Part shown: piece by piece, positions 18,022-49,573 of the stretch
How the letters are laid out: each line of letters opens with the position of its first letter
Position numbering within the stretch: the stretch's first letter is position 1
Origin: a virus
Lineage: Duplodnaviria > Caudoviricetes
Length of the DNA: 59,634 nt
Virus record (IMG/VR): IMGVR_UViG_3300005326_000008
Location: 1 to 59,634 of that record
Direction: 5' to 3' (one strand)
Notes under the pieces: model-generated
What the model saw: only the letters and a program-made list of their open reading frames with translations
Database searches by the model: none
Told to the model about the DNA's origin: nothing
Position numbers and translations under genes: made by a program

Positions 18022-18438
18022 TTAGCTCATTATTGGGACATACTTTATCCTCAATGTAAAGTTTGAATTATTCACTGCGTCTGTATTGATAACTTTGATA
18101 TTTAACTTACTTTCACCATCTTCATTCTTGTAAGCAATGTATCTAATAGGTTGGTCAGATAAAGTCCCAGAGTTGTCAATATTCCTATAAATCCTATAAT
18201 TGTCTGAAAAATCATTCTTCTCATAAAGTTCTACATCAAAGTCTGTAGAGTTTGTTGCAAAACACATTATATGAGATAATTGTGCTTTCTTAACAAAAGT
18301 ATAACTAAATGTACCAGTAGCACCGGCACTAATAGTACCTGTCGTTTGTGTAAATGTGTCTGTTGGAAAAGCATAATCTGCTTCGGCTTGGTCGAGCCTA
18401 ATTGTTTGACCATCATCCCTTAATACATATCCTGCCAT
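18022..18438 (-). CDS. Putative virion structural protein
   Basis: Beta-rich; GGAG RBS. Confidence 0.55.
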   Translation of the reverse strand: MAGYVLRDDGQTIRLDQAEADYAFPTDTFTQTTGTISAGATGTFSYTFVKKAQLSHIMCFATNSTDFDVELYEKNDFSDNYRIYRNIDNSGTLSDQPIRYIAYKNEDGESKLNIKVINTDAVNNSNFTLRIKYVPIMS

Positions 18439-19647: not shown

Positions 19648-19680
19648 ATTAAAATAAAAAAATAAGGGAAATTCCCTTAA
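19648..19680 (-). terminator. Hairpin plus T-run after the major capsid gene
   Basis: TAAGGGAATTTCCCTTA followed by TTTTTTTATTTT on the minus strand. Confidence 0.6.
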
Positions 19681-31472: not shown

Positions 31473-31592
31473 TCTATTCCTGCTATGACTCCCAAAAAGA
31501 ATACTAGGAGTATACCAATGAACTTAATTATATCCTCTATCATATATCTTACCTTCATTACCGTTTTCAACCAATTGGTTGATTTTCTTAAA

Positions 31593-35498: not shown

Positions 35499-35864
35499 AT
35501 GAGGATGAGATACTATTCCAAGGTCACAAAGAAACAAGCGTTCAGAGTGTGGAATAATTGGAAGAGGCATCATCGGAATGAATATATCTTTCTTAAGACA
35601 GAATGTTCCGAATGCAAAAGCAGGGATAACTTGGATATACACCATAAAGATTATAACAAACTTAACAATGCTAAAGAGAACTTGGTTTGTCTTTGTTCAA
35701 AATGTCACAATAATATCCATATTCAAGCACAAGTTAGGTATGTCCCAGAACCAAAGATTATAGAACCGGAAGAAGAACCAGATACTTATTTTAATAGATG
35801 GGTTAAAAGGAGAAGGGAAAGGTTAGCAGCCGAAGCTACCAATGATAGCCGCACCGGCGACTGA
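35499..35864 (+). CDS. HNH endonuclease
   Basis: CSEC..LDIHHKD..N..ENLVCLCSKCHNNIH. Confidence 0.9.
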   Translation: MRMRYYSKVTKKQAFRVWNNWKRHHRNEYIFLKTECSECKSRDNLDIHHKDYNKLNNAKENLVCLCSKCHNNIHIQAQVRYVPEPKIIEPEEEPDTYFNRWVKRRRERLAAEATNDSRTGD

Positions 35865-36532
35865 GGTGCTCCGCGTCGCGCGCGGTATACAATAAGAAAG
35901 GTTATAGAACAAAGAGAGACTATAAGCAAACAGGCGTTATACTTATAGATAGAAACAAAAAGGCAAACGCGTTTAAGACCTCTCGGCCACATTCAGCTAT
36001 TTACATAAAATGAATAACAAAATGAATAAAGGGTTCCTCAAAGCGTGCGCCGGCCACAGGTACGTGACTTACCCTCTCCCTCCTTTTTTCCTCGTTAAAA
36101 AAGAATGCTTTTTTATCAACTAATTGGTTGATTTTTGTTCAACTGATTGGTTGTATTTGTTTATTTTTTATTATGTTCTACACTATATACAAATATGCTA
36201 ATTCCTGCTTATAATGGTGTTATAAGCTCTAAAAACGTATATACAACACAACAAACCCAGCTTATTGTATCCTTACTAATTTTATGCTTATAATCTGTAA
36301 AAAGTTACAACCAAATGGTTTAAAAAATATAAACTATATAGTAGAAAATAGCAAGGAAAAGATATATAAATAAGAATACCAATAAGATTATACATAAGAT
36401 AACTAACAAAAAGAAAGAGGTTAAGGATATGAACACACAACAAAAAAACAAGGATAGAAACTTAATAAGTCTTTCCATTATAAGAGACTTAACAAGTGAG
36501 GTATTACAGGCATTACCTACGGAGTGTAGAAG

Positions 36533-36685
36533 ATGAGACATTACAAGATAGCAATAGAGACACCGCACGGGATAGGGATAATTATTAATCCTATAACGAA
36601 GAAAGACTTAACATTTACAACACAAGAGGATATATTACTCTATATGGAGAATTCACTTATAGAATACGAGGTAATAAGGGTTTAA
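36533..36685 (+). CDS. Small hypothetical protein (50 aa)
   Basis: GGAG RBS; MRHYKIAIETPHG. Confidence 0.4.
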   Translation: MRHYKIAIETPHGIGIIINPITKKDLTFTTQEDILLYMENSLIEYEVIRV

Positions 36686-36871
36686 GATAAACCCTGCTCT
36701 TCAATCGCCAGAGAGGGCTTATACTCACAAAACGGGTTAAACACCCGTTTATTTATGAGATGATAGGTAAGGGTTAAAGTAGAGGTATAACACCGAAACG
36801 TATAATCAAGATATACAACGAAATAACCAAACCCGACAAGTCCCGAAGTACGTGTAGGGATTTCATATTAC
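36671..36871 (+). ncRNA. Candidate ~200-nt multi-stem RNA
   Basis: Closing stem GTAATA/TATTAC encloses at least five hairpins. Confidence 0.5.
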
Positions 36872-36886
36872 AATAAGATAAACAAC

Positions 36887-36908
36887 GAAAACCTTTAAGC
36901 TTAAAGGT
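36887..36908 (+). promoter_or_regulatory. BRE-TATA within a perfect 18-bp palindrome (early promoter/operator)
   Basis: GAAA followed by ACCTTTAAGCTTAAAGGT (36891-36908). Confidence 0.55.
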
Positions 36909-36937
36909 ATAAAAAAACAAACAGAAAAAGAATAAAG

Positions 36938-36970
36938 GGTTTAATTGAATTCCTTAAAAATTCAATAGGA
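36938..36970 (+). promoter_or_regulatory. RBS-adjacent hairpin motif, copy 1
   Basis: GGTTTA-ATTGAATT-CCTTAAA-AATTCAAT-AGGA. Confidence 0.75.
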
Positions 36971-36980
36971 AAAACAAAAA

Positions 36981-37475
36981 ATGAAAACCTATGAATTTAT
37001 AGAATTGGGTTTTATGCCAAACCCTGAAATAGATTTTGTAAAATCTCAAAAAATAGTAGTTAAAGAGATTAAAAATAAACAAATTGCTGAAAGTTTAAAA
37101 AACACTTTAAATATTTTAGGGTTAAAGTTTAAAAAATTAAGTATTTACAACCCCAACACATATAATTATTCTACTGACAGCATAGATTTAACTATCTATA
37201 ATAGTATAAATAAACAAAAACTTAAAAAAGCTATTTTAAAGTATTCAGAAGAGATAAATAAAGAACTTCAAAAAAACAAAAGTTATGATGGTTATATAGC
37301 TTTAAGCCCTAAAAATATAAATGAAGAATTGGAAAACTTAAACACTAAAAAAGGATATAGTGTTAATTGTTTAGTTTTATTTGCTTTAATAAATTGTTTA
37401 AATCCAAATATTATACAGCAAATAAAAGATATAATAACCGATAGTATTAGAGAATATGAAAGCGAGGAACTTTAA
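36981..37475 (+). CDS. Early hypothetical protein
   Basis: P..YNYSTDSI and SYDGY motifs; RBS motif upstream. Confidence 0.7.
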   Translation: MKTYEFIELGFMPNPEIDFVKSQKIVVKEIKNKQIAESLKNTLNILGLKFKKLSIYNPNTYNYSTDSIDLTIYNSINKQKLKKAILKYSEEINKELQKNKSYDGYIALSPKNINEELENLNTKKGYSVNCLVLFALINCLNPNIIQQIKDIITDSIREYESEEL

Positions 37476-37636
37476 AAAATGAAAACATTCCAAATAAGTT
37501 TTATTTTTAGTGAGGTAGTCAGAGAAATAGAGGCAAACACAGAAGAAGAGGTTATAATTAAAGCCGAACAACTTCTCCATAATGAAGAAGACAGCTTAAA
37601 AAAAGAAACGGGTGTTTATAATATTGAGGTGTTAAA

Positions 37637-37843
37637 ATGATAACAAACACAGAAATAAACCTTAAAGGCGAGAACTACATTTTTACTATTGATTACTCTT
37701 TAAGAGAGTTAAGGATAGTAAATATAAAAAATCAAGAAATAAAGTTTATACCTTTAAGTAATGATGATTTAGATGGATTAGAATATTTAAAGGCGAATGA
37801 TGAAGACACCTTTAAAGAATGTCTTCAAGATTATGATTATTAA
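37637..37843 (+). CDS. Early hypothetical protein
   Basis: GAGGTG RBS. Confidence 0.6.
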   Translation: MITNTEINLKGENYIFTIDYSLRELRIVNIKNQEIKFIPLSNDDLDGLEYLKANDEDTFKECLQDYDY

Positions 37844-37844
37844 T

Positions 37845-37878
37845 GGTTAATTGGGTTTTCCTTTAAAACCCAATAGGA
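37845..37878 (+). promoter_or_regulatory. RBS-adjacent hairpin motif, copy 2
   Basis: GGTTA-ATTGGGTTTT-CCTTT-AAAACCCAAT-AGGA. Confidence 0.75.
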
Positions 37879-37888
37879 ACAAAACAAA

Positions 37889-38416
37889 ATGGAAACAAAC
37901 ACAAAAGAAAGGATTAAAAGGTTTTGTGATAGTGCTTTAATCACAAAAGAAAGAGAAGACAAAACCAAATTTAAAGTATTTAATGAAGACACAGAGTTTA
38001 AACCTTATTGGGAGAGAATAGAAAATATCCTTTATAGTAGAGGTTTTGAGATTGAAGATTTTTATTATAGAGTTCTTGATGATGCTTTAAGTAATATCGG
38101 TTATTATCTTCAAAGTAACGAAGGGGATTTAGAAAATTTTGAAGTTTTGGAATACGCAGAGGCAGATATTTACAACGGCGATTTATTGGCGTGGTTGTCG
38201 GAAGATTTAGGAAATTCTGATTATGTAGAAGATGTTTTAAACGAAATTGGCGATTTCAATAAATCTAAATTAAGCTTTTTTGAACTTCTCCAACACGCAC
38301 AGACAAGGCACAAAGAAGAAATTTATTATATAGCGTTGGAAGTAGTAAAAGACTTAATAGAAACTTTTGAAACAGAAGAAGAAGACAGAAACACAGAGGA
38401 AGAGGTTACAAAATGA
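37889..38416 (+). CDS. Highly acidic early protein, possible Ocr-like DNA mimic
   Basis: Strong Asp/Glu excess, helical; ADIYNGDLLAWL segment; early location. Confidence 0.45.
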   Translation: METNTKERIKRFCDSALITKEREDKTKFKVFNEDTEFKPYWERIENILYSRGFEIEDFYYRVLDDALSNIGYYLQSNEGDLENFEVLEYAEADIYNGDLLAWLSEDLGNSDYVEDVLNEIGDFNKSKLSFFELLQHAQTRHKEEIYYIALEVVKDLIETFETEEEDRNTEEEVTK

Positions 38417-38530
38417 AAACTAAAAAAAGAACTCTGTGTTTAAGTTGTAAAACTAAATACGACAAAGAAAGATTTTTGTTTGATTATTGCCCTATTTGTA
38501 AAGGAAAAAATCTCAAAGAGGTTGTTTAAA

Positions 38531-38725
38531 ATGCAGACTAAAAAGGATTTTAAAAATATAGGAACTATCCTAAAAGACACAAGAGCCAACGAAGACATAA
38601 TTAAAGCGTTTATCTCTTATTTTAAACGGGAGAATGGAAACTTTAACGGAAAGAGATTTTTAAAGTTGGTTGGAAGAGAGGATTTAATCTCTTCTTCTGA
38701 AAAGGTTAATGAGGAATACCTTTAA
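38531..38725 (+). CDS. Early hypothetical protein
   Basis: GAGGT RBS; MQTKKDF..ENGNFNGKRF. Confidence 0.55.
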   Translation: MQTKKDFKNIGTILKDTRANEDIIKAFISYFKRENGNFNGKRFLKLVGREDLISSSEKVNEEYL

Positions 38726-38737
38726 AACCTCATAGGA
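38704..38737 (+). promoter_or_regulatory. RBS-adjacent hairpin motif, copy 3
   Basis: GGTTA-ATGAGG-AATACCTTTAAAA-CCTCAT-AGGA. Confidence 0.75.
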
Positions 38738-38747
38738 TAAGAACAAA

Positions 38748-39548
38748 ATGCAAGAAAAAACAATAGTTAGGGAAGAAAAGGTTTATACCTTTAATCAAGA
38801 AGAAAAGGAAGAGATTTTAAGGCGAATTGTAACTAAAAGGCAGAGTGATTTAAGCTATTATTGGGATTATAACGATAGATTAAGCGAAGAACAAGTTTTA
38901 AAGTATATTAAAGGCGAATTAGAAGATATTGATATTATTGAAACAGACTACGAAATGAAAATTATTGAAGATATTCTTCAAGAAGAATTAACAGCAGAAG
39001 AAAAGACAGATAACGAACTACAATATTATTTGTGTGATGAAATGAGAATTCTTTTTGATATGAATTTTCAAGGATTATTAAATAATAGTAGAATAAGATT
39101 GAGGATAGAACTTAAATCAAATGAAGATATGATAACTATTTCTCAATATAAGTATTCTGAATGTTATAAAGAACTTAAAAAGTTGCTGAAAGGGAATATC
39201 AAACTGAAAGAATTGAAAAACGAATTATTAAATATGATGGGTAGTGAATACGGAGAATTTGTATTCTTCTGGGAAGTTAGAGGGAGTGAGATAGAAACTT
39301 TAAGAAACGAATATGAGAAAGGATATATCACTATTCCTAAAAATTGCGGTTGTGGAATATTTAATTTTTGGGTTGGTGCGGGAAGTCTCATAGATTTGAG
39401 AACAAGAGCAGAGATTAAACTTAACCTAAAAGATTGGAGTAACAGCGATAAAAAGTATTTCTCTGTTGCTGTGAAAGGAGATAAATTAAGCAAATATGGA
39501 ATTCAAGAAACCTACAACTTAACTTATGAATGTTGGAGAGTGAATTAA
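38748..39548 (+). CDS. Early hypothetical protein
   Basis: 266 aa; YWDYND and CGIFNFWVGAGS motifs. Confidence 0.7.
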   Translation: MQEKTIVREEKVYTFNQEEKEEILRRIVTKRQSDLSYYWDYNDRLSEEQVLKYIKGELEDIDIIETDYEMKIIEDILQEELTAEEKTDNELQYYLCDEMRILFDMNFQGLLNNSRIRLRIELKSNEDMITISQYKYSECYKELKKLLKGNIKLKELKNELLNMMGSEYGEFVFFWEVRGSEIETLRNEYEKGYITIPKNCGCGIFNFWVGAGSLIDLRTRAEIKLNLKDWSNSDKKYFSVAVKGDKLSKYGIQETYNLTYECWRVN

Positions 39549-39891
39549 GATGAATAAAGAATATTGGGTTTTAAGGCATAGTTGGAACAGAAAGACAGGT
39601 AGAAGAGATAAAACCGAGATTGTCTTTAAAGCGATTGACACTTCAATTAAAGAAGTTATGAAACAAGTTGAGAAACTGAAAACCGATAAGTGCGATTATA
39701 CTATCTGTAAAGCAGAGAGGTGGGTAAGTTGAAAGAAATAATCAAAATGGGAGTATATTCCAAAGAAACTAATGAGTTGGTTGATTTTGGAGAGTATAAT
39801 TCAGTTAAAGACGCAAGAAAAGATTTCATTAATTGGGATAAACCAAGAGGAAGATATGCAGTTTTAGATAACGGGACAAGGTGGGACTAAA

Positions 39892-40197
39892 ATGAGCAGT
39901 TGCACGATTGGAGTTGTGAAAGATAACAGGTTTTACCTTGTTATTGAACATTACTCATATTTAAAGGCGATTTTTAATGATGAGCAGAGTTACATCAAAG
40001 AAAGTAACCCGCAAAATGTTAGAGGTTGTCTCAATAGTTACCCTTATGAGAGTAACACCAGTGACACAGGGTTTATTCCAGCAGTAATAATCAATTTTGA
40101 TGATAAGGTTGTAATAGACACCGATTATAATTGGTTTATTGGAATGGAAGAACTGACACCGAAAGGGTGGAAATACCAACACAAAGGAGTAAGGTAA
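39892..40197 (+). CDS. Early hypothetical protein
   Basis: Packed ORF with RBS. Confidence 0.55.
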   Translation: MSSCTIGVVKDNRFYLVIEHYSYLKAIFNDEQSYIKESNPQNVRGCLNSYPYESNTSDTGFIPAVIINFDDKVVIDTDYNWFIGMEELTPKGWKYQHKGVR

Positions 40198-40413
40198 ATG
40201 AAACTACAAACTAAAAAGCATTTAATCAAAGCACTTGACAAAGTTGTAGAACTTAAACTTGCACAGGTAACAGAAATCAAACTTGTTATCTTTCTGTTGA
40301 AGAATGATAGTAGTTTAAGCATTAAGGAAATGAGAGAAATTACAAGAAAACTTATCATCAAACTTGGTTATGAAGAACTAATTTTAAGGGGAGATAACGG
40401 AACTTGGGAATGA
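40198..40413 (+). CDS. Early hypothetical protein
   Basis: Abuts the previous gene; GGAG/AGGT RBS. Confidence 0.5.
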   Translation: MKLQTKKHLIKALDKVVELKLAQVTEIKLVIFLLKNDSSLSIKEMREITRKLIIKLGYEELILRGDNGTWE

Positions 40414-40796
40414 ACACAGAAGACAAACACAGGGAGTTCTTTAACGAACGAAAACGAATGTTAAAGGCGTATAACTCGCTCATCTTGGAGAGGGTTAAAA
40501 CTAACAAAAAGATAAGAATGATACAAGAGGATTTAGAAAACCTTGACAAAGTATTATTCTTGGGAGACTAAACAAATGCAAACATTAAAGGCACAAGATT
40601 TAACCCGACTTTTTGCAAATAAGACAGGTTGTAATTGTCAAGAGTTAGGTTGCCCGTGTAATACTTGTTTTCATAGTATTGAACACGTGGATTTTAGACA
40701 TATCTGTTGGTTAATCGTGTTAGGATTGAGAGGCGATTATGATAGAAAAGAAATTATACCAGCAATTGAAGAAGAATTACGTTGTAGGAGACTATA

Positions 40797-43878: not shown

Positions 43879-44123
43879 TGGAATTCAAGAATACTGAAAG
43901 ATGTGGTTGCTGTAAAGAAATAATCGTTGGGAAAGTCAAGACCAAAGGTAGTATGACTTACTGCGAAGATTGTTATAACTGCATATCACAGGAAAGTATT
44001 TAAGAAAGTATCATATTTACTTGGATAAAAACAAGTAAAAACTTGCATTTGGAGTGGTAGGGGTAGTTCAAAACCTCCCTGTGTTTTAACCTCTATCACT
44101 CCTCCTAATAAATTGGATAGAAG

Positions 44124-44933
44124 ATGAGAATAACAAAATATCAAGAGTTGGACAAGTTTGTGAAAATGTTTGCAGAGAAGAAAGCAAACTTAATCATAAT
44201 CAAAAGTAAAGCTGGATTAGGTAAGACTTCGAGTGTATTAAGAACTCTCAAAGGTGAAGATTTCTATTTTATTAACTCTCACGTTACACCATTACAATTC
44301 TATAAAGATATCTATACTAATATTGGAAGACCTATATTGATTGATGATGTAGATAACTTACTCACTTCAAAGATTTCAGTATCATTACTTAAACAAATCT
44401 GTGGGACAGAAGAAACAAAGACTATACAATATCATTCTACTTCACCTGCAAGTGCAGATGTGCCTATGAGTTTTACTACTAATTCGAATGTATTAATCTT
44501 ATGTAACGAGTTTGATGTGAAGAACGAAAACATTAGAGCATTAATCGATAGAGGGTTTTATGTGAGTTTTGAACCGAGTATTGAAGAAGTTCTAACCAAA
44601 ATGACTGAAATAACTAACAAATATCCTCACTTACAATTAGATGATAGAGTTAAAGTATTAAACTTTATCAAACGTAATGCAAAGTATGGAAAAGATATAT
44701 CACTTAGAACTTTAATCAAAGCATTTCAGATATTCGAATTTGACCAAGCTAATTGGAAACGGATTACATTAGAGTTAATGAACATAGACCAAAGAATGAT
44801 TGAGATTGTTGGATTAGTTGAACAATATGATAATGATAAGGTTAGGATACAACATTTCTCTGGAAGTAAAGCTACATACTATCGACTTAAAAAGGGGTTG
44901 AAGAATGGCGAACAACAAAAACGTAGTAGTTAA
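44124..44933 (+). CDS. AAA+ ATPase with C-terminal HTH-like tail
   Basis: Walker A AGLGKT, Walker B ILIDD, sensor LCN, Arg finger ALIDR; SKATYYR. Confidence 0.85.
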   Translation: MRITKYQELDKFVKMFAEKKANLIIIKSKAGLGKTSSVLRTLKGEDFYFINSHVTPLQFYKDIYTNIGRPILIDDVDNLLTSKISVSLLKQICGTEETKTIQYHSTSPASADVPMSFTTNSNVLILCNEFDVKNENIRALIDRGFYVSFEPSIEEVLTKMTEITNKYPHLQLDDRVKVLNFIKRNAKYGKDISLRTLIKAFQIFEFDQANWKRITLELMNIDQRMIEIVGLVEQYDNDKVRIQHFSGSKATYYRLKKGLKNGEQQKRSS

Positions 44934-45346: not shown

Positions 45347-45577
45347 ATGCGAAGAGAACCTAATGAACTGAGGTATCATCTAAATAGGATTACTTGTTTA
45401 AAGGCGAAAGAACTTTACCGAAAGGGATACAACCTTCAAATGATAGCTAGCAAATTACATATTGAAGGGCACAAGGTATTGAAACAGGGATTGGAAACTT
45501 GTTTATCTTGTGGAAAACCAACTATTAAAGGGGCGATATATTGTTATGATTGCTCACTTTGGAGGCTGTTAGAATGA
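45347..45577 (+). CDS. HTH plus Zn-finger protein
   Basis: GYNLQMIASKL; CLSC/CYDC. Confidence 0.6.
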   Translation: MRREPNELRYHLNRITCLKAKELYRKGYNLQMIASKLHIEGHKVLKQGLETCLSCGKPTIKGAIYCYDCSLWRLLE

Positions 45578-47034: not shown

Positions 47035-47331
47035 ATGAAGACTACAGAATTAATCAAAAATGAAGAGAAGATTGGAGATACCAAACATAGATATCTGCCA
47101 GTTAGTTTTAATAAGGAAGAATTGCTAGAAAAGTATCCTGAATTAGCAACCTTGACAGGCAAAGAAACCAAAAACTTTCTTAGAGGAAAGTTAGGTTTTG
47201 AACCTCTAGGTCAATCTAGTAGAGGAAGACATACTGGTTGGTTTGCATCATTCAAGAAACAAATGAATATTGACCCAAAGGCACACCCTAGAGACGTACT
47301 TAAACAACTAATCGAAGAAAAAAGAATTTGA
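47035..47331 (+). CDS. Hypothetical protein, paralogue of 46138..46497
   Basis: GGAG RBS; shared pattern with 46138..46497. Confidence 0.6.
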   Translation: MKTTELIKNEEKIGDTKHRYLPVSFNKEELLEKYPELATLTGKETKNFLRGKLGFEPLGQSSRGRHTGWFASFKKQMNIDPKAHPRDVLKQLIEEKRI

Positions 47332-47366
47332 AGGGATTAATTTTCCCTTTAAATTTAAGAGGAAAT

Positions 47367-47627
47367 ATGAAAAAGAAAACCTTTAACAATGAATGTTTGA
47401 ATTTAATCAACGAAGCCAAGCTTAAGAAGAATGATGGGCCTACAAAGATTGCTTTAGAAATTTTAGAAGCGTCTATCAAAAGAGAATGGAATGAAAAAGA
47501 TTTTGATAGTGCCATCAACAAGTTACATGAGGCTATCTTATTTAAAGAGGCATTAAACGTAGCAGCGAAAATGTTCAAGGAGATGAAAGAAGATGGAAGA
47601 GACCACGGAAGTAAAACAAGAAAGTAG
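47367..47627 (+). CDS. Hypothetical protein
   Basis: GAGG RBS before ATG 47367. Confidence 0.55.
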   Translation: MKKKTFNNECLNLINEAKLKKNDGPTKIALEILEASIKREWNEKDFDSAINKLHEAILFKEALNVAAKMFKEMKEDGRDHGSKTRK

Positions 47628-48715: not shown

Positions 48716-48965
48716 AACAAGCCCTTTTTTGTATTTGACTACACCAGAAAAACTAAATACAATAATTGGAATCATGAAACGTAATGGCGGAAAGATTAGG
48801 ACTATAAACCTTGTAGAACAGTTTTCAGTAAGTAGGCAAGCATTAAGGCCGTATATGTTGACATTACTAAATTTAGGAATAGTCGGTGCTAGATTAGAAG
48901 GCAGATTTTATACCTACTTCTTGACTGGCAAGAACGAGTATCTAATAGCACAACAGCAAAAATGA
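48702..48965 (+). CDS. Winged-HTH transcription regulator
   Basis: LVEQFSVSRQALRPYMLTLLNLGIV..EGRFYTYFL (ArsR-like). Confidence 0.75.
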   Translation: MHPDKTSPFLYLTTPEKLNTIIGIMKRNGGKIRTINLVEQFSVSRQALRPYMLTLLNLGIVGARLEGRFYTYFLTGKNEYLIAQQQK

Positions 48966-49573
48966 ACATAATCGAACAAAGTTTGTTAGACCCGGATAGG
49001 TTAGCATTCATAGAAGACTTAGTACTCCTCGGAGTAAACTGGTCTGAGATAAGCCGAAGAATAGAACAAAAGTATAATATCAAAGCTACTACCAAACAAA
49101 TACAGAATGCTTATGATAAAAGAATAATTAGAAGGGAGATGGGATTAATGCAGGATAATCGATTAAAAGACCAGTATAATTTGGAGATACGAAGGTTGAT
49201 TGAGAAACTCCAAAAACAAACTGAAGAATTAGATTTGCTCTGGGAAGAAGCTAAGAAGCAAGGAGTAAAGAATGCGGGTGTTATGTTAGGTATTGCGAAT
49301 GAGACTAGAAGAAGAGTCGAGATGATTGAAAAGATTCTAGGAAACCTTAATGCACCTAAAGAACAAACTAATAATTTTGTTCAAGTTAATTTATCAAACA
49401 TGAAAGAGTTCCAGAAGTATCTAGTCCAATTAGAGAAAGCTGGGTTTATTAGAAAGAAACGTAAATACCCTTGGGAAGATGGAGGGGATAATATGGCTGT
49501 AGAAGTTGAGTACGAAGCCACAAATGAAGAGGATAAAGAAGAAGAGGTAGAAATAGAGAATGATAGAGATTAG
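48962..49573 (+). CDS. Possible terminase small subunit (HTH, helical, acidic tail)
   Basis: GVNWSEISRRI HTH, helical oligomer region, TNNFVQVN. Confidence 0.45.
   Translation: MNIIEQSLLDPDRLAFIEDLVLLGVNWSEISRRIEQKYNIKATTKQIQNAYDKRIIRREMGLMQDNRLKDQYNLEIRRLIEKLQKQTEELDLLWEEAKKQGVKNAGVMLGIANETRRRVEMIEKILGNLNAPKEQTNNFVQVNLSNMKEFQKYLVQLEKAGFIRKKRKYPWEDGGDNMAVEVEYEATNEEDKEEEVEIENDRD

Follow-up and report, generated by a model that had tools for sequence, protein, structure and literature searches.

A tailed virus held in groundwater metagenomes carries three copies of a fixed-length, 34-nucleotide (nt) hairpin element (GG...AGGA), each placed directly before a gene and in the orientation of that gene. 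The window analyzed here, 59,634 bases in length, is the complete IMG/VR virus record IMGVR_UViG_3300005326_000008 (59.6 kb). It has exact direct terminal repeats of 123 nt and is held by two DNA runs labelled groundwater metagenome; no RNA runs are listed among its holders. All three copies (c1, c2, and c3) lie on the + strand. Their stems differ in sequence, each is perfectly paired, and each copy stands at the same distance from its start codon. We conclude that the element is a real, statistically sound, repeated, and structure-preserving feature. The explanation we tentatively prefer is a transcribed stem-loop beside a free Shine-Dalgarno (SD) sequence, with a loop that would be read by one factor co-regulating the translation or decay of three cistrons.

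The first copy, c1 (36937–36970, +), falls within the leader 5' of the first gene on the + strand. It opens with GGGTTTA, continues with an 8-bp stem (ATTGAATT/AATTCAAT, 36944–36966) closing a CCTTAAA loop, and ends in AGGA; it scored an E value of 2.9e-8 with nhmmer and 59.2 bits with a covariance model (CM). The second, c2 (37845–37878, +; 70.3 bits with the CM), starts 1 nt past the stop codon (37841–37843) of the upstream open reading frame (ORF) at 37637–37843 and consists of GGTTA, a 10-bp stem (ATTGGGTTTT/AAAACCCAAT, 37850–37874), a CCTTT loop, and AGGA. In c3 (38704–38737, +), GGTTA is followed by a 6-bp stem (ATGAGG/CCTCAT, 38709–38733), a 13-nt loop containing CCTTTAAAA, and AGGA. 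The ORF upstream of c3 (38531–38725) crosses the left arm of the hairpin, and its TAA (38723–38725) falls inside the loop.

In all three copies the SD-like AGGA is followed by an A-rich spacer and an ATG (36967–36983, 37875–37891, and 38734–38750, all +). A preliminary reading of the sequence without database searches (the sequence-only reading) had placed three copies 10 nt before the ATGs at 36981, 37889, and 38748, and both the sequence and the table of base pairs bear this out. The distance from the start of CCTT to the ATG is exactly 29 nt in every copy; there are no indels, so each copy spans 34 + 10 nt. An ungapped 50-nt alignment of the three has 29 invariant columns and a mean column identity of 85%, and a TTTAAAA box occupies positions −27 to −21 relative to the ATG in each. 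The same reading had called the flanks constant, but GGTTA is present in only two copies, c1 having GGGTTTA. The left arm of c1 also sits 2 nt closer to the loop than in the other copies. MAFFT could not represent this shift in register, and pairs were counted by script instead; the CM was built on the ungapped alignment and inherits the flaw. Five of the 10 positions in the SD-to-ATG spacer vary among copies, and c2 and c3 are 71% identical over 84 nt, reaching into otherwise unrelated genes.

AGGA is a plausible though short SD sequence, and its 10-nt distance would correspond to the usual spacing when aligned to the full anti-SD complement. SD-like sites at other genes of the phage are of the GGAGG or GAGGT type, 5–9 nt from the ATG. 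Each copy can also be read as an in-frame mini-ORF of 7–8 codons ending at the TAG of ATAGGA. We rejected this candidate as a by-product of the fixed element length; its starts (TTG, ATT, and ATG) are unconserved and lack usable SD spacing.

Evidence for a conserved structure comes from the paired arms. The stems are perfect at 8, 10, and 6 bp in c1, c2, and c3, with loops of 7, 5, and 13 nt. Numbered from the base of the stem, the first two pairs are A-T and T-A throughout. The next four pairs differ: T-A, T-A, and G-C (c1, c2, and c3) at the third, G-C, G-C, and A-T at the fourth, and A-T, G-C, and G-C at both the fifth and the sixth. All four variable positions have changed on both sides and none is broken, which confirms the earlier observation that the stems differ yet stay paired. 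Each left arm forms six of six pairs with its own right arm and two to four of six with the right arms of the other copies.

Chance controls support the same conclusion. A perfect stem of at least 6 bp ending at one fixed position has a probability of ~0.005 in random 34-mers of the same composition, and a genome-wide check of this criterion gave a similar value (291 of 59,594 positions, also ~0.005). The pattern GGTTAATN{12,24}ATAGGA, which joins the flanks GGTTAAT and ATAGGA, has two matches against 0.06 expected, a count reached by none of 100 shuffles. The word CCTTTAAAA by itself is not over-represented (two found, 2.1 expected).

We searched for the element elsewhere in the genome and in public databases. 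The sequence-only reading had proposed a comparison with described motifs; Rfam 15 returned no match at the gathering threshold across the whole window and, over 35900–39000, no family even at E ≤ 10. Sequence-profile and covariance searches of the genome found no significant further copy, and none precedes other operons. The best non-significant match (nhmmer E 1.4, CM E 0.39) is a possible degenerate fourth copy at 47331–47375 (+; GGGATTAAT...CCCTTTAAA...AGAGGA) before gene 47367–47627. A weak copy had been suggested at 47335–47363, but a different, extended helix forms there (AAGGGA/UCCCUU, −15.1 kcal/mol) and AGGA stands 4 nt from the ATG, not 10. Among viral contigs, a strict pattern had one match, without a hairpin, and a loose pattern had at least 116 single matches; among the matches listed, 11 had arms of at least 5 bp, the best arm was 6 bp, and none was repeated within a contig. 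Pattern scans gave no match in the genome contigs of a collection holding one genome per prokaryotic species and one match, without a hairpin, in metagenome contigs.

Related viruses were also compared. The large terminase (TerL) has no close relatives in IMG/VR. Its relatives lie at 33–43% identity; fourteen IMG/VR loci at 31–42% identity were examined, and three whole related genomes were included. In five related records the core pattern was overall no commoner than a reversed control, and the three whole related genomes have no family of hairpins ending 8–20 nt before ATGs. Across 26 loci of TerL relatives (397,692 bases), the best CM match had an E value of 0.24 and no pairs. Over 36000–40000 the contigs of both DNA runs match the window exactly and so provide no population covariation. 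Because no relatives carry the element, all of the structural evidence is intragenomic and rests on the four compensated pairs. The element matches no described family tested; the literature surveyed supplies comparators and is not proof that the motif is unpublished.

The hairpins of c1, c2, and c3 have predicted folding energies of −4.1, −10.4, and −5.8 kcal/mol at 37°C. Each stops directly at AGGA, which lies outside the stem. The SD is predicted to be unpaired with a probability of 0.26–0.96, high for c2 and intermediate for the other two copies. The sequence-only reading had raised the possibility that the CCT of the loop pairs with the AGG of the ribosome-binding site (RBS). This pairing is disfavored, at −3.2, −3.1, and −0.7 kcal/mol, weaker than the hairpin in all three copies. 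We share the doubt, already expressed there, that a pseudoknot would be sterically feasible, given a linker of zero length. In fourU/ROSE-like thermometers the SD is paired in the stable state; in the element the masking helix is the weaker structure in every copy, so an SD-masking switch or thermometer of this kind does not describe it. With the hairpin outcompeting the masking helix in these models, the SD is predicted to be presented next to the stem.

We take gene orientation, exact distance to the ATG, and compensated stems together as pointing to a structure that acts with translation initiation, and hence as RNA. A free SD at the foot of a stem, combined with a conserved loop and base and a free helix sequence, is the anatomy expected of a protein-recognized operator. 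The element would be transcribed within a polycistronic + strand mRNA and fold into a short stem-loop whose 3' foot abuts the single-stranded SD (AGGA, 10 nt before AUG). The stem would need only pairing, and its copy-specific sequences would ensure local folding without cross-pairing in one RNA; we propose that the stems are copy-specific because all three, lying on one transcript, must not cross-pair. The kept loop core, (U)CCUU(U)AAA(A), and base, GGUUA-AU...AU-AGGA, would be read by one trans-acting factor, either a phage or host RNA-binding protein or a nuclease. This factor would co-regulate ribosome access, decay, or both, for three unrelated cistrons, and the outcome would be a small post-transcriptional regulon resembling a translational operator. 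At c3, translation of the upstream ORF may open the hairpin and deliver a ribosome at the SD. We infer that the element acts as RNA and is bound by a factor, and likewise the direction of its effect. A cis-regulatory RNA motif had been suggested before; the structural part of that claim stands (paired arms, orientation, and fixed distance to the ATG), and the motif matches no known family in Rfam.

Each of the three same-direction copies heads a group of about three genes. No terminator-like site was found between the three groups, which fits co-transcription, and no promoter-like site separates them. The gene after c1 (36981–37475, +) encodes a 164-aa protein and the gene after c2 (37889–38416, +) a 175-aa protein, both of no family; the AlphaFold2 model of the latter is unusable (mean pLDDT 40.6). 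The gene after c3 (38748–39548, +) encodes a 266-aa ORFan. No similarity was found among the three proteins, which are not paralogues, and they have no match to Pfam or PHROG families and no usable match in the Atlas. No relatives of the 266-aa protein were found in IMG/VR or among 5.8 billion proteins, where it was the only one of 1016 candidates to be recovered. Because the downstream proteins are unrelated, the conservation belongs to the element and was not carried over from gene duplication. The earlier description of these genes as early follows from their position, as the first + strand genes after a divergent non-coding stretch, and is used here in that positional sense. The second gene group also contains a 38-aa ORF (38413–38529) with two CxxC pairs (zinc-ribbon-like), the product of which is possibly a nucleic-acid binder.

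Several observations weigh against a shared RNA operator. There are only three copies in one genome, and covariation amounts to four pairs. The three stems contain no G-U pairs, so the strand, and RNA as opposed to DNA, cannot be told from them; a wider strand comparison of G-U with A-C gave an uninformative 2 versus 0. The hairpins are weak at the energies given above, and the folds of 61-nt windows are not significant against shuffles (z −0.4 to −1.7). In c3, an alternative fold (GGUU/AACC plus GAGG/CCUU, −7.0 kcal/mol) beats the proposed hairpin (−5.8 kcal/mol) by 1.2 kcal/mol. AGGA with an A-rich spacer also occurs before other phage genes, such as ATAGGAGACAAAAA-ATG at 18438, so part of the 3' conservation would reflect a generic style of initiation region. 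The heptamer CCTTTAA is enriched around the copies on both strands, which hints at a DNA-level reader, and family scans of the phage proteins identified no candidate RNA-binding protein. If the operator reading is nevertheless true, one post-transcriptional signal is reused on unrelated genes of an uncultivated phage, and its 34 nt offer a handle for finding the factor that times the expression of ORFan early genes. The mutually orthogonal stems suggest selection for local folding within one long transcript. Its reach is limited to one orphan genome and three copies, and hairpins at phage initiation regions are already well known.

Phage T4 provides the comparators for such an operator. PMC3014915 describes the T4 gene 43 operator as an upstream hairpin with a conserved loop and a sequence overlapping the RBS. 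The element likewise has a conserved-loop hairpin contiguous with the RBS, and in the T4/RB69 operator stem length may vary while the loop is kept. The T4 operator differs in being a single copy that serves one gene and is bound by the product of that gene, whereas three copies precede three unrelated genes here. Its loop sequence is also different, without sequence similarity to the element. As a point in common, the T4/RB69 operator acts on phage mRNA made early, and the genes behind the element are early by position. PMC3014915 also reports that RegA represses ~30 mRNAs at initiation regions and that RegB with S1 cleaves early initiation regions at GGA(G) where A-rich sequence comes next (consensus GG*AGRAYARAA). 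One factor acting on many early initiation regions resembles what we propose, and the RegB core of unpaired GGA plus A-rich sequence resembles the unpaired AGGA plus A-rich 10-mer of the element. RegA sites as presented there lack structure, and a hairpin is not among the requirements given for RegA or RegB targets, unlike the element. The corresponding sites in the three copies (GGAAAAAC, GGAACAAA, and GGAUAAGA) have A or U as the fourth base and do not fit the RegB/S1 site as described in that text (GGAG/U + RAYARAA). Scans of the phage proteins turned up no homologue of regA or regB.

The region around the copies is rich in other hairpins. The genome has 66 perfect hairpins with a stem of at least 7 bp and a loop of 3–14 nt, of which 20 lie within 36083–40466; with stems of at least 8 bp, the counts are 22 and 11. 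The expectation for 36001–40500, from 200 dinucleotide-preserving shuffles of that region, is 6.5 ± 2.6 and 1.9 ± 1.4, respectively, and no shuffle reached either observed count (20 and 11). Elsewhere in the + arm the counts match expectation (13 found and 17.1 expected for stems of at least 7 bp, 3 and 4.2 for at least 8 bp). The 36–39 kb bin holds 18 of the 66 hairpins, many within coding sequence, and no comparable single peak was found in three related genomes. One-mismatch stems in the same island number only seven, a count made without a shuffle control. The first 4.5 kb of the + arm is unusually structured, and we regard this hairpin island, together with a family of CCTTTAA words, as more unusual than the three copies.

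Two of the hairpins accompany copies of the element. One, at 37801–37827 (+), lies at the 3' end of ORF 37637–37843, 17 nt before c2, and has an 8-bp stem (TGAAGACA/TGTCTTCA) with the loop CCTTTAAAGAA. The sequence-only reading had noted a similar hairpin at this place; it is real, and its loop includes CCTTTAAAG. The other, at 38673–38694 (+), has a 7-bp stem (GAAGAGA/TCTCTTC) and ends 9 nt before c3. The arms of the two resemble each other, with one double-sided change from C-G to G-C. A perfect palindrome, ACCTTTAAGCTTAAAGGT (36891–36908; z −4.15), contains two CCTTTAA half-sites and stands 28 nt before c1. Within 36.9–40.9 kb lie 6 of the 16 CCTTTAA sites on the + strand and 8 of the 17 on the − strand, and 36–40 kb holds 16 of 50 CTTTAA and 18 of 59 TTAAAG.

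Longer words with a CCTTTAA-type core recur in the same region. The 10-mer TTAAAGGCGA, often as ATTTAAAGGCGAAT, has five exact copies in 37558–40470 and at 45398 (+). Allowing at most one mismatch, there are 11 against 3.9 expected, with none of 100 shuffles reaching 11, and 8 of the 11 are on the + strand in 37558–40470, in different reading frames. Its TTTAAAGG part is complementary to the hairpin loops. The word TTTATACCTTTAA has three exact copies against 0.57 expected, at 37745–37757 (+), 38782–38794 (+), and 36901–36913 (−), and AAAGG plus TTTATACCTTTAA looks like the element minus its stem arms. The best match of the CM other than the copies falls at 38777–38808 (E 0.27).

A different explanation, possible though clearly less probable than the shared operator, is a passive RNA boundary. 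The hairpin would be a 5' stabilizer or insulator for each gene group, and its loop would be unread by any dedicated factor. A host endonuclease would cut the AU-rich single strand between companion hairpin and element, at about AA(A/U)GGUUA, giving the upstream piece a 3' hairpin and the downstream piece a 5' hairpin next to its SD. It is known that 5'-terminal stem-loops stabilize bacterial mRNAs and that T7 early mRNAs are processed at structures recurring between cistrons. The tandem layout agrees with such a boundary, since companion hairpins precede c2 (by 17 nt) and c3 (by 9 nt), the palindrome precedes c1 by 28 nt, and the whole of 36.0–40.5 kb is a hairpin island. A stem of free sequence is also expected where only pairing counts. 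A generic stabilizer, however, needs neither a conserved loop nor an exact 29-nt distance to the ATG, and these stems are short, AT-rich, and worth only −4 to −10 kcal/mol.

A promoter is unlikely. The CCTTTAAAA core would then be a TATA-like or −10-like box, used either by archaeal TBP/TFB for a leaderless or near-leaderless start at the ATG or by a phage-modified bacterial RNA polymerase starting at AUAGGA, and the inverted repeat would play a part solely in read-through transcripts or in binding a regulator. The TTTAAAA box is at a fixed spacing (−27 to −21) in all three copies, which would suit an archaeal leaderless promoter if the host is archaeal, and all three copies, pointing the same way, stand at the head of a group of about three genes. 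Of the two TerL relatives in the species-genome collection, one comes from a contig assigned to Methanosarcinales, and the weak TerL matches include an Altiarchaeum virus. Archaeal leaderless promoters likewise have a TTTAAA-type A/T box ~25 nt ahead of the start codon, one for each gene group. In the element, though, there is no purine-rich BRE directly upstream, where the bases are CC plus variable ones. The center of the box is also ~3 nt too close to the ATG, the usual archaeal center being −26/−27, and the flanking arms covary, double-sided changes that a promoter would not lead one to expect. The host bins conflict, and the terminators that follow the capsid gene and close the arm (hairpin plus T7-8) look bacterial.

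As a bacterial promoter, the box lacks the conserved last T of the sigma-70 −10 element, and there is no −35 at 16–18 nt. Sigma-70-like sites in 35500–40000 number 17 against 18.8 ± 4.4 expected, and none overlaps a copy. No RNA polymerase or sigma factor was detected among the proteins scanned; the largest ORF (781 aa) has tail/baseplate matches, and the two-barrel RNA polymerase motif [DN]xDGD has no occurrence in six frames. Hairpin promoters of the N4 virion RNA polymerase have stems of 5–7 bp and 3-nt loops and are used by a giant virion polymerase. The element is similar in that three hairpin-containing conserved elements precede early genes, and it differs in its loops of 5, 7, and 13 nt and in belonging to a genome in whose large ORFs no polymerase domain was found. 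Loops of 5–13 nt would also be poor for DNA cruciforms. Only three copies exist, none before other operons. The sequence-only reading had offered a hairpin promoter with a TATA-like loop as an alternative; the spacing of the box would fit an archaeal promoter if the host were archaeal, and with no sigma-70-like site overlapping a copy and no phage polymerase found, it is the less supported of the two proposals. In favor of a promoter, PMC3014915 places a late promoter of T4-type phages, at gene e, within the DNA encoding the 5' strand of an RNA structure.

Less likely again is an element that acts as DNA, either as a cassette boundary for the recombination or shuffling of ORFan genes or as one of a set of CCTTTAA sites for a DNA-binding protein that would mark the region as a control region, an origin, or similar. 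The elements do flank ORFans, and the similarity between c2 and c3 extends into unrelated genes. CCTTTAA, CTTTAA, and TTAAAG are concentrated on both strands of the region, the palindrome ACCTTTAAGCTTAAAGGT is among these sites, and TTTATACCTTTAA and TTAAAGGCGA exceed expectation as given above. The excess in the island consists of perfect Watson-Crick palindromes, one-mismatch stems being few. Against this, a protein site should hold its arms constant and not vary them in step, and recombination needs no exact distance to an ATG. No recombinase was found among the proteins scanned, and the two assemblies holding the virus show no rearranged forms or variants.

The promoter-early stem-loops (PeSLs) of T4-type phages are the comparator for shuffling. 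PMC2839356 gives a PeSL two defining parts, a sigma-70 consensus promoter and a terminator stem-loop, and presents PeSLs as recurring stem-loop motifs near ORFans that mediate shuffling. As PMC2839356 and PMC4122927 describe them, PeSL cassettes resemble the element in being repeated composite stem-loop motifs between ORFans, in one region of the genome, with weak conservation of stem sequence. Their stems are often polyG/polyC in those accounts, whereas here they are AT-rich and the element abuts an SD at a fixed distance. Both defining parts are absent from the element: none of the 17 promoter-like sites in 35500–40000 overlaps a copy, and none of the three hairpins is terminator-like or has a T run after it. 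The flanking genes are ORFans, and the two assemblies compared contain no rearranged forms.

An RNA reading of another kind is improbable as well. The loop UCCUUU would copy the 3' tail of bacterial 16S rRNA and act as an anti-SD mimic, framed by the SD-like AAAGG upstream and AGGA downstream. Such a device would have three states, with the variable stem determining whether the mimic is exposed, pairs upstream, or masks the SD. The mimic might also contact at least six UUAAAGGCGA boxes in early coding regions and, with the hairpin island, form a phage-specific RNA architecture that organizes, protects, or times a block of takeover genes. Least probable is a neutral relic, a leader segment copied twice and now decaying with pairing left from an ancestral palindrome; the presence of only three weak-stemmed copies in one genome agrees with it, but neutral decay breaks pairs and all four varied positions are compensated, there are no indels in any 34 + 10 nt copy, and the adjoining coding sequences are without similarity.

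The three copies lie at the start of one of two divergent arms. Genes on the − strand run from ~35992 down to 2223 and encode the large terminase, portal, capsid, tape measure, several glycosyltransferases, and a radical-SAM enzyme. Genes on the + strand run from 36981 to the end of the window and continue at 1–1845; most are ORFans, accompanied by a wHTH protein (48962–49573), methyltransferases, a sulfotransferase, and a phosphoesterase. The arms diverge from a non-coding stretch of ~1 kb (36000–36980) with the lowest GC of the genome (0.28). This leader before c1 contains two TGCTTATAAT boxes (36207–36227 and 36283–36293), one of them inside an 8-bp hairpin, and ~190 nt before c1 a terminator-like hairpin (AAACGGGT/ACCCGTTT, 36730–36750) followed by ATTTAT. 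The boxes are possibly promoters, and the hairpin possibly an attenuator, for the + arm. No tRNA genes were found in the window.

Signals of the host conflict. Weak TerL matches are to phages of many hosts, one Altiarchaeum virus among them, and the Atlas returned viral clusters only. In the species-genome collection, TerL relatives occur on only two short contigs. One, at 35% identity, is binned with a Methanosarcinales archaeon and the other, a partial match at 40%, with a Chlamydiae bacterium; both are probably mis-binned viral contigs. On the − strand, short GC-containing hairpins followed by 6–8 T occur at 19679–19663, 2235–2218, and 18512–18495, each precisely where a gene finishes: the capsid gene, the last − strand gene, and gene 18643–18503, respectively. 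From their sequence, these sites look like intrinsic terminators of the bacterial type.

Other structured or repeated sites were noted in the window. A perfect 16-bp palindrome, TCAACCAATTGGTTGA, occupies 31567–31582 in an intergenic gap of the − strand genes, two adjacent copies of CAACnnATTGGTTG lie at 36117–36153 in the divergent non-coding region, and a similar GTTGGTTGATTTT is near 39777. These are probably operator-like sites of one dimeric regulator. A strongly structured intergenic RNA is predicted at 44016–44103, before gene 44124–44933, with an 8-bp hairpin and a helix of ~14 bp (GGAGUGGUAGGGGU.../...ACCUCUAUCACUCC). The 131-nt fold of this region reaches −34 kcal/mol (z −2.9), and none of 200 shuffles folds equally well. 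Finally, a 13-bp perfect hairpin or palindrome at 935–968 ends directly at the GGAGG of gene 979–1320, the product of which has a weak CcdA-like match (E 0.0025). The site resembles an autoregulatory operator or a further hairpin that abuts an SD.

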